Positions 29,592 through 45,047 of a DNA stretch of 64,000 nt are shown here, one piece after another. Numbering within the stretch: the stretch's first letter is position 1; the number at the start of each line of letters is the position of its first letter. Position numbers and translations under genes: made by a program. The notes below the pieces were generated by a model. The model saw only the letters and a list, made by a program, of their open reading frames with translations. It did not search any database and had not been told where the DNA came from. The DNA is from Candidatus Woesearchaeota archaeon (GTDB taxonomy: Archaea; Nanobdellota; Nanobdellia; Woesearchaeales; WAPY01): the NCBI GenBank assembly GCA_049700835.1, contig JBNAUL010000001.1, forward strand, positions 1 to 64,000, in the 5' to 3' direction.

Positions 29592-31001
29592 TTACTCTGC
29601 AATGAACTTCCTTACTGTAGGGCTCATTTCCATCAAGTGCTCGCGAGCAATCTGCTGATAGAGCTGATAAAGAATCATTACTGAAAGCAAAATTCCTGTT
29701 CCCCTGCTCAGAGCTCCAGAGATGTCTGCTATTGCTGCTAAGAAACCAACTGCAATTCCTCCCATAACTGTCAATGGCATTATATACCTTGAAATCACTC
29801 TTTCAAGAATTCTCTCATCAGCCCTGAAACCAGGAATCTGAAGCCCTGAAGCCAAAATCTGTTTTGCTTGGCTTTTTGCATCCATACCTGAAGTGTGAAC
29901 CCAAAATATTGAAAATAGAACAGCACCTCCAATCATGAAGATAACATAGATTAATGCGTGAAGAATGTCAGATGAAACTAAACTTCCTGTTATTAATTTG
30001 TTAAATATCAAAGGAGCTTTCAACCACAAAACCAATCCTGAAGAAGGAGAGTTTCCAGCAAATGTTCCTAATATTGGCCTTCCCCAATTTTGCAACAATC
30101 TTGCCCACAATTGAATGTTTGCCATAAGAGCTGCAACTAAAATTACTGGTATGTTGCTCGTATACAAGAAGTTCAAAGGCCATCTTATTCCATAGCCGCG
30201 AACCCTTCCAAATGATAACGGTATTTCAACTTTCATTGCCTGCACAAATACTGAAATTACAAAAACAAGTGTTGTCGCAATTATAGCCCAAAAAGCAAGA
30301 GCAAGAGTTTTAACATCAGAGTTTGCCAATGCATAGAAAATCTCAAATACCTTTCCAACAGGAGGCAATTGGCTGAATGGATAGCCCAATGTTCCTGCTG
30401 TTGTGAATGGACTTAACAACATAACAAAGATTGACTGCGCAACCCCTGCTACAATGAACAAGGATATTCCTGAACCAAAACCCCACTTGCTAACAACCTC
30501 ATCCATCATCATAACCAAGAAACCACCAATTGCTAACTGCACCACTAATAAAACTTGCAGCAATGCATAAGATTTCAATCCAGGGGTAGGGGTTAATCCG
30601 CCCATATAAACATAAATCATTGCCTCAAAGATTATGAATAAAATTGAGAGAACCTTTTGCAATGACTGAAAATAAGCCCTTCCTTCCTTTGATGTCAAAT
30701 CAATGTTTAATATTCCTGAACCTACGAGCAGTTGCAGGATGATTGAAGCAGTCACGATTGGACCAATTCCTAAAGACATTAAAGAACCAAAATTAGCTCC
30801 TAAGATTATTGACAAGCTTTCAAATGCTTGTAGGGCATTTTGACCTAAGCCAAAGAGCGGGATTGTTGACAAACCCAAATAAGAAATAAGGATTATGAGA
30901 GTCCATTTCAACCTTTCATTGAAAGCCAAGTATTTCTGCGCTGGTTTTGAAATTTCTGGAATAAGATTTGACAATTGATTAATGAATGATTGTTCTGCCA
31001 T
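29592..31001 (-). CDS. secY: Preprotein translocase SecY/Sec61alpha
   Basis: LGIGPIVTASIILQLL, KWGFGSGISLFI, YTSNIPVIL, IPGFR, GTGILL. Confidence 0.98.
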   Translation of the reverse strand: MAEQSFINQLSNLIPEISKPAQKYLAFNERLKWTLIILISYLGLSTIPLFGLGQNALQAFESLSIILGANFGSLMSLGIGPIVTASIILQLLVGSGILNIDLTSKEGRAYFQSLQKVLSILFIIFEAMIYVYMGGLTPTPGLKSYALLQVLLVVQLAIGGFLVMMMDEVVSKWGFGSGISLFIVAGVAQSIFVMLLSPFTTAGTLGYPFSQLPPVGKVFEIFYALANSDVKTLALAFWAIIATTLVFVISVFVQAMKVEIPLSFGRVRGYGIRWPLNFLYTSNIPVILVAALMANIQLWARLLQNWGRPILGTFAGNSPSSGLVLWLKAPLIFNKLITGSLVSSDILHALIYVIFMIGGAVLFSIFWVHTSGMDAKSQAKQILASGLQIPGFRADERILERVISRYIMPLTVMGGIAVGFLAAIADISGALSRGTGILLSVMILYQLYQQIAREHLMEMSPTVRKFIAE

Positions 31002-37837: not shown

Positions 37838-38154
37838 TTTTTAACTCCTAAAATTACAAAGTGTTTTGTCTTTGAAATCGGCCTTGTTTCTCCAATGATT
37901 ACAGTATCTCCTTCTTCTGCTGAAATGCAGTCAGGATTGTGAGCATAAAATTTTGAGATTTTTCTCTCGCTTCTCTCATACTTTGGAATCTTTCTCTTGA
38001 ATTCCATTACAACTATTGCTGTTCTTCTGGCTTTTGCGCTTTTTACCTTTCCGACAAAAACCCTTCCTCTAACGCTTATTGGTCCATGAAAAGGGCAATT
38101 CCTGTCATTGCATTCTTTTTCAGGCGCCTTTATTCCATAAATATCCTTTTTCAT
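37834..38154 (-). CDS. rps17: 30S ribosomal protein uS17
   Basis: CND.NCPFHG, HNPDCI, ETRPISKTKHF. Confidence 0.96.
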   Translation of the reverse strand: MKKDIYGIKAPEKECNDRNCPFHGPISVRGRVFVGKVKSAKARRTAIVVMEFKRKIPKYERSERKISKFYAHNPDCISAEEGDTVIIGETRPISKTKHFVILGVKK

Positions 38155-38393
38155 TTATTCACCCTATCTTCAGGTCTCTTCAGCAACTTCTTGCCATCAA
38201 CCATTATCCTTTCTTTCAAAAATATTATTTTGACTTGATTTTTTATTATTCTCTTTTTTCCTTGTTTTGTTTTGATAGTGTATGTATTCTTTGTCTCATC
38301 AATTATTTTGCCTTTCAAACCGTTAATCTGCTCGTTCTTGCTTTCAACAATTATTTCTTTACCTATGTGTTCTTCATTCACTATGTTTTTCAT
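38151..38393 (-). CDS. rnp1: RNase P protein component Rpp29
   Basis: GKIIDETKNT, VDG..L..RPEDR; canonical operon position. Confidence 0.9.
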   Translation of the reverse strand: MKNIVNEEHIGKEIIVESKNEQINGLKGKIIDETKNTYTIKTKQGKKRIIKNQVKIIFLKERIMVDGKKLLKRPEDRVNK

Positions 38394-38402
38394 AAACAAT
38401 TC

Positions 38403-38708
38403 TTATTTTATGTTGATTGTTTCTGGCTTAAAACCTTCTTCAACAAGAGCTTCTCTAATCTTTGATTTATGGTCTCCTTGCAGGGCTATGATGCCCTCCT
38501 TAATTGTTCCTCCGCATGCAAATTTTGTCTTCAATTTCTTAAGGAGTTTTTCCTTGTCTATTTCCTTGTCTTCGAGACCCTCAATCATTGTGTAGCTCTT
38601 CCCAAATTTTCTCTTTTCAACATAAACATTTATTTTCTGCGTCTCCTTTGCGATTGTTCCGCAAACGCAAAGCTCTTTTGGAAGGCCGCAAACAGGGCAT
38701 ATGTCCAT
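38403..38708 (-). CDS. sui1: Translation initiation factor aIF1/SUI1
   Basis: CPVCGLPKELCVC, LK.KFACGGT, LQGDH. Confidence 0.95.
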   Translation of the reverse strand: MDICPVCGLPKELCVCGTIAKETQKINVYVEKRKFGKSYTMIEGLEDKEIDKEKLLKKLKTKFACGGTIKEGIIALQGDHKSKIREALVEEGFKPETINIK

Positions 38709-42439: not shown

Positions 42440-43411
42440 TTACATTACTAATTTTAAGAGGTTTAGTTGTTCCATTCTTTTTTTGTTTGCTCTTGTTGCT
42501 TTGATTATTCTTATTAACCTCTTCTTTGAGCCAGGCACTGAACCTTTGACCAATAAAACCTTGCTCTTAACTTGACCATAATTTTCAAAACCGGATTCTT
42601 TTTTGAATTCATTAGCAGGACTTATTTTTACAAGCAGTTTGTTGTATTCTGTTCTCTGATGAAAACCAAGCTGTCCTGCGTGAGCAACCCTGTATTGAAT
42701 GTGAACTTGAGCATTCCATGGTCCCAAGCTTCCAGGAGTTCTCTGCCCTTTCTGCGATTTGTGCTGAGTAAGGGCAATGCCAAATCTTTTCACAGCTCCT
42801 TGGAAACCCTTTCCCTTTGTTATTGCGTGAATATCAACGAGTTCTCCTTCTGAAAAAACATCCTCAATATTGATTTCCTTGTTAATTTTTTCTTTCAAAT
42901 AATTGAATTTCTCTTGGTTTGAACCTGATAGTTTAATCTCAAACAGCTCAGGAGTTTTTTTCTTGAGTCCTGAAAGATGAGGCAATGTGTAAACGATAGC
43001 AGTTATATCTGCATAAGCATTTAGGTTTTTCTCAAACTCCTCCAAACTTTTCTCTTTCTTGTTCTTTGGAATTTTTCTAAAAAGATGCTTGTCCTTCCCA
43101 ACAAAAACCTCGTCTGCAACAAATAAACCATTGCTTGAGTTCTTGTAAAACCTTACTGAAGCAATCTTTAACGGAGGGCATTCAATTATGGTTAAAGGAA
43201 TAACCTTTTCCTCATTTTTTGTCATTGATGTTGGAGTGTTGTCCAAAACAACTCCATGAATCATTCCTACTTTATAACCTGCAAACTCAACTGGTTTTGC
43301 TTCCTTTAACCCTGAAATATTTCTATACCTTACTCTAGCATAAATTCTCTTGGCCCTTTTTCTTGGCCAATACTGCATACTTCCTTTTCTTGGAAATCTT
43401 ATGTTTGCCAT
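42440..43411 (-). CDS. rpl3: 50S ribosomal protein uL3
   Basis: PRKGS..YWPRKRA, GYKVGM, TKGKGFQG..KRFG, GQLGFHQRTEYNK. Confidence 0.97.
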   Translation of the reverse strand: MANIRFPRKGSMQYWPRKRAKRIYARVRYRNISGLKEAKPVEFAGYKVGMIHGVVLDNTPTSMTKNEEKVIPLTIIECPPLKIASVRFYKNSSNGLFVADEVFVGKDKHLFRKIPKNKKEKSLEEFEKNLNAYADITAIVYTLPHLSGLKKKTPELFEIKLSGSNQEKFNYLKEKINKEINIEDVFSEGELVDIHAITKGKGFQGAVKRFGIALTQHKSQKGQRTPGSLGPWNAQVHIQYRVAHAGQLGFHQRTEYNKLLVKISPANEFKKESGFENYGQVKSKVLLVKGSVPGSKKRLIRIIKATRANKKRMEQLNLLKLVM

Positions 43412-43421
43412 TTTTAAACCT

Positions 43422-43570
43422 AAATCTGTTCAATTAATTCTATGCTACTTGCCTGCAAAAAAACCTTTCAACGGGCGCTTCCAAGAATTATCTAACGAAA
43501 GCATTCCCTTATCAGGTTTTTATTTTGCGTTTGTTTGTCCGGAATCAAGCGATGTTACCGAACAGATTTT
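43422..43570 (-). ncRNA. Candidate structured 5' leader RNA of the rpl3 (S10/spc) operon
   Basis: 13-bp closing helix AAAUCUGUUCGGU/AUUGAACAGAUUU (two G-U pairs, valid on the minus strand) enclosing nested helices; begins ~25 nt after a TATA box. Confidence 0.55.
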
Positions 43571-43593
43571 ATGAAATTATGGGGGTTTTGAGG

Positions 43594-43610
43594 TATTTAT
43601 AAAGCTTTCT
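43594..43610 (-). promoter_or_regulatory. Archaeal BRE-TATA promoter of ribosomal protein operon
   Basis: Minus strand reads AGAAAGC-TTTATAAATA. Confidence 0.6.
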
Positions 43611-43859: not shown

Positions 43860-45047
43860 ATGAGGGTTTTTTTAAAAACAGCTCCTGGGCTGGAAAGCAT
43901 AAGTTGTTTGGAAGCCTTTGAACTCGTTGGAAAGAAATTTGAAATTAATGATGGAATCATAACTTCAGATTGCGCTTTCATGGATTTTCTGAAATTGCTT
44001 TTTTACTCAAGGAGTGCAGAAAGGGTTGGGTTAATTGTTGCAGAATTAAAAATCAATAATCTCGTAGAGGGAGAAAAGAATGAGAAGAATAGTAAAGAGG
44101 ACGCTGCTTATGGTAAAATAAGAGAAGTGATTTTCTATAAAGACAAAACCATCGAAAAGATCCTTAATTTTTTAAGAAATTCAAAATCATTTTTCAAGAC
44201 AGAAACGTGTGAGTGTTTTAAAAGAGAGAGCAAAAAAGAGTTCAGAGAATTGCTTAGAAAGGATGTTTCAAATCTTATGATTAACAAAGGCTTTTTGCAG
44301 AATTTAAAGAAACCTGATTTCTATTTCTTTTTATTCAAAATAAAAAATGTTGTGTTGCTTGGGATTGATTTTGGAGAAGTTCATAGGAGAAAATACTCTG
44401 TTTTCAACAATCCTCAAAGCATAAGACACAACATAATCTATTCAGCATTAAGAATTGCTGGTTTTTCAACTAATTTTAAAGGAACTATCATCGATCTTAC
44501 AAGCAAAAGCGATTTTTTGATAGAAGCAATTCTTTATTATAGCAACTCTAAAAACGAGGTAAAGAACATTAACAACAGATTGATTTCTGATTTGGGCAAA
44601 GAAATTGTAGGTAAAGATTTTGAGCATTTCTGCAAAGAAGAAAAAGAGGATAAAAAAGATGAAGATAAAGAAGATAAATACAGCGCAAGCAAAAATAAAA
44701 AAACGAATTTTGTTGCATACAGCAAATACAGGCAGAATTTGAGCGTTTTAAGAAAAAATTCTTTGGTTGCAAATGTTAAAGAAATACTCTTTACAGAAGA
44801 GCATGAAAAAGTTGCTGAGTTTTTAAGCAGCAGCGAAAAAAATATAGTCATTGCTCAGGTAAAGAACTATAAAGAACTCAATGAGCTTAAGGGCTTTTTT
44901 GAATTGCTAAAAAATTCTATCTTAATTATTATATCCAACAATGAGCTTGATTTAAATATTCTTAAAACAGAAAGAACAAAGTATGAAAAACAAAAAATAT
45001 TTCAAGGATTAAACTCATTGTTTTTGCATAAGATTTGTTTTGATTAA
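43860..45047 (+). CDS. THUMP/Trm14-RlmL-like RNA methyltransferase homolog, degenerate catalytic motifs
   Basis: T.PGLE....E N-terminus, LLGIDF..VHRRKYSVFNNPQSI, IEA; no DPMCGSGT or NPPY motif. Confidence 0.6.
   Translation: MRVFLKTAPGLESISCLEAFELVGKKFEINDGIITSDCAFMDFLKLLFYSRSAERVGLIVAELKINNLVEGEKNEKNSKEDAAYGKIREVIFYKDKTIEKILNFLRNSKSFFKTETCECFKRESKKEFRELLRKDVSNLMINKGFLQNLKKPDFYFFLFKIKNVVLLGIDFGEVHRRKYSVFNNPQSIRHNIIYSALRIAGFSTNFKGTIIDLTSKSDFLIEAILYYSNSKNEVKNINNRLISDLGKEIVGKDFEHFCKEEKEDKKDEDKEDKYSASKNKKTNFVAYSKYRQNLSVLRKNSLVANVKEILFTEEHEKVAEFLSSSEKNIVIAQVKNYKELNELKGFFELLKNSILIIISNNELDLNILKTERTKYEKQKIFQGLNSLFLHKICFD

Follow-up and report, generated by a model that had tools for sequence, protein, structure and literature searches.

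Feedback on ribosomal-protein (r-protein) synthesis by messenger RNA (mRNA) leaders is textbook knowledge in bacteria and has been documented in a handful of archaeal cases. In Escherichia coli, the r-protein uL4 binds the leader of the S10 operon and acts both on a terminator within that leader and on translation, according to the part of the source drawn on here (PMC10931766). Leaders of this kind (r-leaders) are a recognised class, for which the survey sections used here list four archaeal candidates, none of them from DPANN, and rate the L4 motif of Archaeoglobi as "?" (borderline) for covariation (PMC7247131). The present analysis concerns the leader of the rpl3 super-operon of a Candidatus Woesearchaeota archaeon (assembly GCA_049700835.1), which lies within the first 64,000 nucleotides (nt) of contig JBNAUL010000001.1; this whole stretch is referred to as the window, and coordinates of single features are positions in it. 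With moderate confidence, the element is read as a cis-acting structured 5' untranslated region (UTR) leader of the rpl3 super-operon mRNA and as a new r-protein leader.

The original prediction, made from the sequence alone, had described on the minus strand a transcription factor B recognition element with a TATA box (BRE-TATA), followed by a closed leader of about 150 nt with several nested helices. The BRE-TATA and all of the listed helices were present, either in the sequence, as inverted repeats or in the minimum-energy fold. The helix GCAAAA..AAACCU / AGGUUUUUUUGC was recovered as inverted repeats, and the helices GGG/CCC and GCUUUCG/UGGAAGC appeared in the minimum-energy fold. The structured leader therefore stood, but its extent did not, since the unit conserved among relatives consisted only of a core of 52-100 nt preceded by a separate 5' hairpin. 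In the window, the core was composed as follows:

43461..43519, minus strand: core motif, comprising P1, an internal loop, P2 and an apical loop (covariance-model match L001:2519-2577:-, 44.3 bits)
43514..43519, minus strand: 5' strand of P1, AAACCU, pairing with 43466-43461
43509..43513, minus strand: J1/2, GAUAA, forming the 5' side of the internal loop (mostly GAAAA in relatives)
43496..43508, minus strand: 5' strand of P2, with GGG, an AAU bulge and GCUUUCG (minimum-energy fold)
43484..43495, minus strand: apical loop UUAGAUAAUUCU, with the conserved UUCU at its 3' end (motif comparison)
43473..43483, minus strand: 3' strand of P2, with UGGAAGC, a G bulge and CCC (minimum-energy fold and covariation)
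43467..43472, minus strand: J2/1, GUUGAA, forming the 3' side of the internal loop (A-rich and variable in relatives)
43461..43466, minus strand: 3' strand of P1, AGGUUU (P1 pair probabilities 0.96-1.0)

The same motif was visible by eye in the regions upstream of rpl3 in relatives. Thirty rpl3 loci from across the order were picked by uL3 similarity alone (uL3 was found in 40 of 41 genomes), and a covariance model, R1, built from 24 seed segments with 67 positions and 16 pairs, matched the motif in 25 of these 30 loci. Among the five R1-negative loci, L013 was cut by a contig end 68 nt upstream, and nothing similar was found in L012 and L020. The other two, L011 (genome G026) and L014 (genome G013), carried the 5' half of the motif (GCCUG.AAA..CAGUAC, the hairpin and UUCU) with no recognisable 3' strand of P1, and in L011 the motif reached the start codon; these two loci may hold variant or decayed forms of the motif.

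When whole genomes were searched with R1, exactly one match each was obtained in 85 of the 151 genomes of the order, which is a lower bound, as the search pre-filter missed the copies in the window and in G005. All 60 newly inspected matches were located on the rpl3 strand, 7-151 nt upstream of the start codon. For the remaining 25 matches, 19 were in genomes with the motif at the rpl3 locus, the match in G039 abutted rpl3 by coordinates, and those in G067, G106, G113, G125 and G149 were left out of the locus inspection. Over all relatives, the distance between motif and start codon ranged from 7 to more than 180 nt. In the genome of origin (1.07 Mb, 4 contigs), the motif and the 5'-proximal hairpin described below (H0) were present as single copies. 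An R1 search of this genome missed the true site and returned only C1:102438-102502 (minus strand), outside the window, with 19.9 bits and E = 0.28, which is probably noise.

In a phylum-wide sample, 46 of 47 R1 matches fell within the same order. The sole match outside it, in G241, was located at the end of an open reading frame (ORF) with no rpl3 nearby and was rejected, as were two extra matches, L049:991 and L042:2621, which lie inside coding sequence. Among 15 named loci, the motif was found before rpl3 in 10, with the labels Woesearchaeota, Nanoarchaeia or Nanoarchaeota and, in two cases, Methanosarcinales; locus L121 gave only a borderline R1 score (E = 0.94), and the R1 search of these 15 loci found the motif absent from two Micrarchaeota and two more distant records. 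The two loci labelled "uncultured Methanosarcinales archaeon" (L115 and L119) encode a Woesearchaeota-like uL3 (54% and 46% identity) and matched the motif at E = 2e-12 and 4e-07, which suggests mislabelled or mixed bins.

Covariation was counted in a model alignment (A3) of 84 rows, 83 of them distinct, from which G136 was left out. Paired cells amounted to 86.9%, compared with 74.2 ± 0.6 in shuffles, and double-change cells to 191, compared with 61.6 ± 6.3, a count that none of 500 shuffles equalled. Both sides varied in 13 of the 16 modelled pairs over the 83 distinct sequences. In P2 this held for all 10 modelled pairs, and in P1 the outer three pairs covaried and the inner CCU/AGG was near-invariant, the commonest pair being present in 83, 82 and 78 of 83 sequences. 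The covariation score of 0.445 was reached by none of 500 shuffles and compares with 0.05-0.18 (maximum 0.183) when the partners were slid by 1-3 columns. The swaps in P1 were already visible in A1, a MAFFT alignment made from sequence only.

G-U pairs were frequent in the alignment, with one pair split evenly between U-A and U-G (36 sequences each). On the opposite strand, G-U pairs would turn into A.C mismatches, so the strand of the structured RNA is that of rpl3. The earlier claim of a strand-specific structured RNA before the rpl3 super-operon is thus upheld by the G-U pairs and by the covariation of P1 and P2 over 83 sequences, and the conservation and covariation among relatives on which it depended were found (13 of 16 pairs double-changed). 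The minus-strand fold of 43575-43412 reached -39.3 kcal/mol (z = -2.57, 1 of 200 shuffles as good), and the plus-strand fold had z = -2.31 (5 of 200 shuffles as good). The plus strand folds nearly as well, so energy alone gives no choice of strand; as judged from these sequences, the case for structure beyond chance rests on conservation and not on folding energy.

Constraint was also observed on unpaired bases. The common form, present in 61 of the 83 distinct members, is AAGCCU-GAAAA-G..[P2 5' strand]..CAGUAC-[hairpin P3]-(G)UUUCU..[P2 3' strand]..C-AAUAAA-AGGCUU. The other 22 members, which comprise the family of the window and some others, have a plain loop ending in UUCU instead of CAGUAC and P3. 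Around J1/2, CCUGAnAA was conserved in 76 of 83 motifs and CCUGAAAA in 73; UUCU was kept in 82 and A[A/U]AGG in 72. The internal loop is asymmetric (5 x 6 nt) and purine-rich, with GA[A/U]AA facing about six mostly-A bases, and its 3' strand is usually AAUAAA, ACAAAA or similar. Constraint of this kind on unpaired bases is typical of a ligand-contacting surface. A candidate pseudoknot between UAAUUCU (43490-43484) and AGAAUUA (43441-43435), with 7 nt of complementarity, was rejected after it was found to be lost in the same-genus locus L002.

A run of U residues was found at the 3' end of the core:

43457..43463, minus strand: U7 run, overlapping and then following the 3' strand of P1 (sequence reading)

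At least five U residues after P1 were present in 29 of 83 members compared with 5.2% of control windows, and at least four in 41 of 83 compared with 12.6%, the controls being 14,850 windows taken from the same upstream flanks. Archaeal oligo-U tracts act as termination signals, and for about a third of the members, the one in the window included, the combination of stem and U-run suggests attenuation.

A conserved, strand-specific and covarying structure that is found only upstream of rpl3 is best read as an autoregulatory r-protein leader, and its predicted ligand is probably one of the operon's 22 ribosomal proteins. Several points weigh against this reading. In G021 and G033, two complete genomes of the order, the motif is absent upstream of rpl3. 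The alignment A3 is a fit to the model, and seed 3' ends were picked by P1 complementarity, both of which lean towards structure, and the genomes are kin, so that the sequences are not independent. Fewer than five U residues follow P1 in 54 of 83 members, the U-run can alternatively extend P1 by pairing with an upstream A-run, and a scan for consensus terminators gave 0 sites at the leader, a blank that is explained by its criteria, which require a loop of 3-8 nt. The variable spacing to the start codon (7 to more than 180 nt) and the many members without a Shine-Dalgarno (SD)-like site mean that occlusion of the ribosome-binding site is not general. Finally, no convincing rRNA mimicry holding across the order was found: with filters off, the best R1 match to the organism's own ribosomal RNA (rRNA) operon had E = 0.38, and the window motif, aligned locally with the own 23S rRNA, scored 32, which was equalled by 5 of 300 shuffles. 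Resemblance to the rRNA site of the ligand is common among r-leaders but is no requirement of the class.

The individual rRNA likenesses were as follows. A 10-nt identity (AAGCCUGAAA) and, in addition, AUAAAGGCU are shared, in permuted order, by the common form of the leader and a hairpin of the own 23S rRNA at large-subunit (LSU) positions 2765-2800 (G000:C2 LSU, L031, minus strand), which reads AGGG-AUAA-AGGCU-loop-AGCCU-GAAA-CCCU. From E. coli numbering and the location of G2751 at the tip of H97 (PMC2330231), we take this hairpin to be H97. uL6 is reported to bind H97 natively (PMC9687910), and uL3 organises domain VI (PMC9935924). A circularly permuted mimic of the uL6/uL3 site was rejected as a general explanation, the stem beside the 23S loop being variable, with AGGCU/AGCCU in 3 of 28 relatives' rRNAs. 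As the leader stem is invariant, its 3' loop strand is not AUAA and the 23S stem varies, the H97-like match is read as a coincidence. Two other matches, that of UCAGUAC with UGAAAAGAA near LSU 476-505 and that of AACCUGAUGAGGG at LSU 2241, were estimated to be within chance, and a likeness to a bacterial 23S segment was discarded because this segment is absent from the own rRNA.

The failure to detect rRNA mimicry is in favour of a leader without an r-protein ligand, which could be a structure that stabilises or processes the mRNA, a thermosensor, or a site for a factor outside the ribosome, SUI1/aIF1 or Rpp29 being examples. The operon contains the genes for both of these, and the source habitat is labelled hot springs. 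On the other side, invariant unpaired bases beside covarying helices favour specific recognition over bulk stability, and the exclusive tie to an r-protein operon fits the pattern of r-leaders, so that a leader of this kind is possible but rather unlikely.

The proposed autoregulatory r-protein leader lies in the 448-nt gap between rpl3 on the minus strand and a divergent plus-strand gene (43860-45047), together with or next to the following features:

42440..43411, minus strand: rpl3 (uL3), the first gene of the super-operon, with its ATG at 43411 (Pfam Ribosomal_L3, E = 3.4e-58)
43418..43421, minus strand: SD-like AGGU, 6 nt before the start codon (sequence reading)
43594..43610, minus strand: BRE and TATA box of the rpl3 operon promoter, AGAAAGC UUUAUAAAUA, in full AGAAAGCUUUAUAAAUA (sequence reading)

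The BRE/TATA is the sole evident promoter for the operon of 25 genes. The same GAAAGCTTTATAAA box was observed upstream of rpl3 in relatives, with BRE/TATA nearly identical in many of them, and with a permissive regular expression all 83 members had a TATA-like box in the 200 nt preceding the motif (median 75 nt). Judging from its spacing to the promoter, the transcription start would be located near 43577, about 25 nt past the BRE/TATA.

The promoter and the U-run could also belong to an independent small non-coding RNA (ncRNA) gene, which would use the BRE/TATA as its own promoter, stop at the U-run and act in trans or as a stable ribonucleoprotein, leaving rpl3 to depend on read-through or on a second start. 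The promoter preceding the motif (median distance 75 nt), the enrichment of U-runs after P1 (29 of 83 members compared with 5.2% of controls) and the compact, self-contained modules are in line with such a gene. However, 60 of 60 inspected motifs are on the rpl3 strand at 7-151 nt from its start, and many of these loci are too tight for a second promoter; in the window, no TATA-like box is apparent in the 49 nt between the end of the motif (P1) and the ATG of rpl3. In addition, more than half of the members have no U-run, and the conserved BRE/TATA is the only evident promoter of the operon, making a separate ncRNA gene unlikely.

The super-operon itself is closely packed on the minus strand and extends from rpl3 to secY at 29592, with about 22 of its 25 genes encoding ribosomal proteins. 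The gene order is uL3, uL4, uL23, uL2, uS19, uL22, uS3, uL29, SUI1, Rpp29, uS17, uL14, uL24, eS4, uL5, uS14, uS8, uL6, eL32, eL19, uL18, uS5, uL30, uL15 and SecY. The genes encoding SUI1/aIF1 and the RNase P protein Rpp29 (38151-38708, minus strand) are thus inside the super-operon, between uL29 and uS17, and rpl7ae is not among its genes. The product of the divergent neighbour (43860-45047, 395 aa) had no Pfam match at E up to 1e-5, and the promoter of this gene must share the 448-nt AT-rich gap with the rpl3 leader. No gene was found in a scan of the window for tRNA and tmRNA.

Sites resembling AAGG(U) were also found in L002, L004 and L005, and many other relatives have no SD-like site. For the latter reason, an anti-SD or decoy-SD role of the motif, with the CCU/AGG of P1 set against the AGGU before the ATG, was rejected. 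An upstream ORF of 20 codons starting in P2 was likewise discarded as unconserved, its AUG being missing in L002.

Outside the core, two helices compete for the 5' part of the leader:

43536..43564, minus strand: H0, the 5'-proximal hairpin UGUUCGG / CCGGACA with a 15-nt loop, kept in genus and family
43557..43569, minus strand: 5' arm of the closing helix, AAAUCUGUUCGGU, species-specific (inverted repeat; pair probabilities 0.69-0.97)
43422..43434, minus strand: 3' arm of the closing helix, AUUGAACAGAUUU, ending 1 nt before AGGU

The conservation of these outer helices was assessed by aligning the window with L002 (same genus, uL3 84% identical) and L003 (same family). H0 reads CGUUCGG/CCGGACG in L003, with one compensatory change, and in L002 a U.G pair is replaced by U-A. 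A 5' hairpin between promoter and motif is predicted in most relatives, and in many families of the order the sequence of its stem is fixed as GUGUUUAAA..UUUAAACAC (e.g. L021, L032 and L063). Out of five genomes searched for this hairpin, three had a match, each in single copy (G012:C6:89734-89765, G079:C9:5171-5203 and G135:C13:29930-29961). Wobbles in H0 were observed in the window (U.G) and in G135 (G.U), and a compensatory change in L006. This hairpin of fixed sequence may serve as a further recognition site, or as an operator in the DNA.

If the leader as a whole were a DNA-level operator, its palindromes would be bound by a transcription factor just past the TATA box and would not be RNA structure. 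This is suggested by H0 and P1/P2 being inverted repeats, and by the H0 stem (GUGUUUAAA..UUUAAACAC) being fixed in many families and single copy, but it is contradicted by the frequent G-U pairs and the compensatory changes without sequence conservation in P1/P2, by the U.G wobbles of H0 in the window and G135, and by the position of the core about 60-110 nt downstream of the TATA box. A DNA operator is therefore considered very unlikely.

The closing helix that the original prediction had placed beside the SD-like site is present in the window, where a 10-nt perfect inverted repeat (43560-43569 with 43422-43431) is extended by three A-U/G-U pairs to 13 bp, but it is missing already within the genus: in L002, 11 nt are inserted in the 5' arm, and the 3' arm is diverged, reading AUUAAGCACAAUU. 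The helix was not conserved in L003 either. The GCUUG/CAAGU pairing had the same fate, being present in the window and broken in L002. In the minimum-energy folds of L002-L005, H0, the motif and a 3' hairpin were observed, with no 5'/3' helix. H0 and the closing helix use the same bases and are mutually exclusive, and in the window the fold with the closing helix has -39.8 kcal/mol compared with -37.8 kcal/mol when H0 is enforced, a gap of 2 kcal/mol. On the evidence of these alignments and folds, the closing helix is real in this species and is not part of the motif family; it may be a species-specific switch beside AGGU (43421-43418), or meaningless.

In the kink-turn consensus, a three-nt bulge is followed by tandem sheared G.A / A.G pairs, with GA on both strands. 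The L7Ae-binding kink-turn or K-loop element that had been proposed from opposed GA dinucleotides is highly improbable. Opposed GA dinucleotides do occur in the internal loops of the window, L002 and L004, but among the 83 members just 14 have GA in the 3' strand, where AAUAAA, ACAAAA and similar sequences prevail. The loop measures 5 x 6 nt and is not a three-nt bulge with tandem G.A pairs, and rpl7ae is outside this operon.

For the preferred reading, an autoregulatory r-protein leader, the following mechanism can be proposed. Transcription would begin about 25 nt past the strong BRE/TATA, and the RNA would fold into H0 first and then into the core, with P1, the internal loop, P2 and the cap ending in UUCU, often followed by a U-run. 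A ribosomal protein of the operon that is in excess over rRNA would bind the invariant loop and the adjoining helix ends, and the protein-bound leader would reduce operon expression. Two routes are conceivable in this species: P1 stabilised by the protein could act together with U7 as a termination or pause signal (attenuation), or the balance could shift between H0 and the 5'/3' helix that ends beside AGGU and the start codon. The candidate ligands would be uL4, for which there is a bacterial precedent, and uL3, which is the first cistron and a primary binder. A more specific and doubtful proposal is a protein-dependent archaeal attenuator, in which uL3, uL6 or uL4 would clamp the loop and lock P1, polymerase would stop at the U-run, and a switch between H0 and the closing helix would couple translation initiation; this would be an independent counterpart of the E. 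coli uL4/S10 system. Of these candidates, uL3 and uL6 sit on domain VI of 23S rRNA.

Regarding novelty, a search of Rfam 15 gave no match in the leader (E up to 10), as the original prediction had left to be checked, nor in the loci of nine relatives (E up to 1), and a full-text literature search returned nothing on the motif or on rpl3 leaders of DPANN. With 83 distinct members, an order-wide distribution, a single copy per genome and strong covariation, the motif is a well-supported RNA family, and the balance of the sequence evidence favours a new family within the r-leader class. It heads an operon of about 22 r-proteins in organisms with genomes of about 1 Mb and few known regulators. With this motif, binding studies on recombinant proteins of uncultured archaea gain a defined RNA target, and a functional U-run would in addition make it a test case for regulated termination in archaea.

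Compared with known systems, the motif resembles the archaeal L7Ae autoregulatory kink-turn leaders in having a proposed protein-binding internal loop in a 5' UTR, but tandem G.A pairs are unconserved here and the regulated gene is another. With the Methanococcus uL1 operator and the S15 and eL15 r-leaders it shares the logic of an mRNA structure that competes with rRNA for an r-protein (PMC10931766, PMC7247131), whereas in those systems rRNA mimicry is clear and here none is found order-wide. The Archaeoglobi L4 r-leader candidate is similar in being archaeal, in preceding an operon of the same type (rplC, rplD, rplW, rplB and further genes) and in its proposed binding by an r-protein of that operon. 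Compared by the description in the sections used, it differs in belonging to Euryarchaeota and not to DPANN/Woesearchaeota, and in its covariation, rated "?" against 13 of 16 pairs double-changed here; as neither the window nor the nine relatives matched Rfam, there is no detectable homology between the two. The E. coli S10-operon leader is from another domain of life with unrelated transcription machinery and has no sequence or structure similarity to the motif (Rfam); furthermore, the archaeal operon has no S10 and begins with rpl3, and only 29 of 83 members have the U-run. In the portion of the account of the E. coli system relied on here, the likeness is that both are long structured 5' leaders of operons containing rpl3, rpl4, rpl23 and rpl2, and that a hairpin with a U-run, the site of protein-dependent attenuation in E. 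coli, has its parallel in the stem and U7 of the window.

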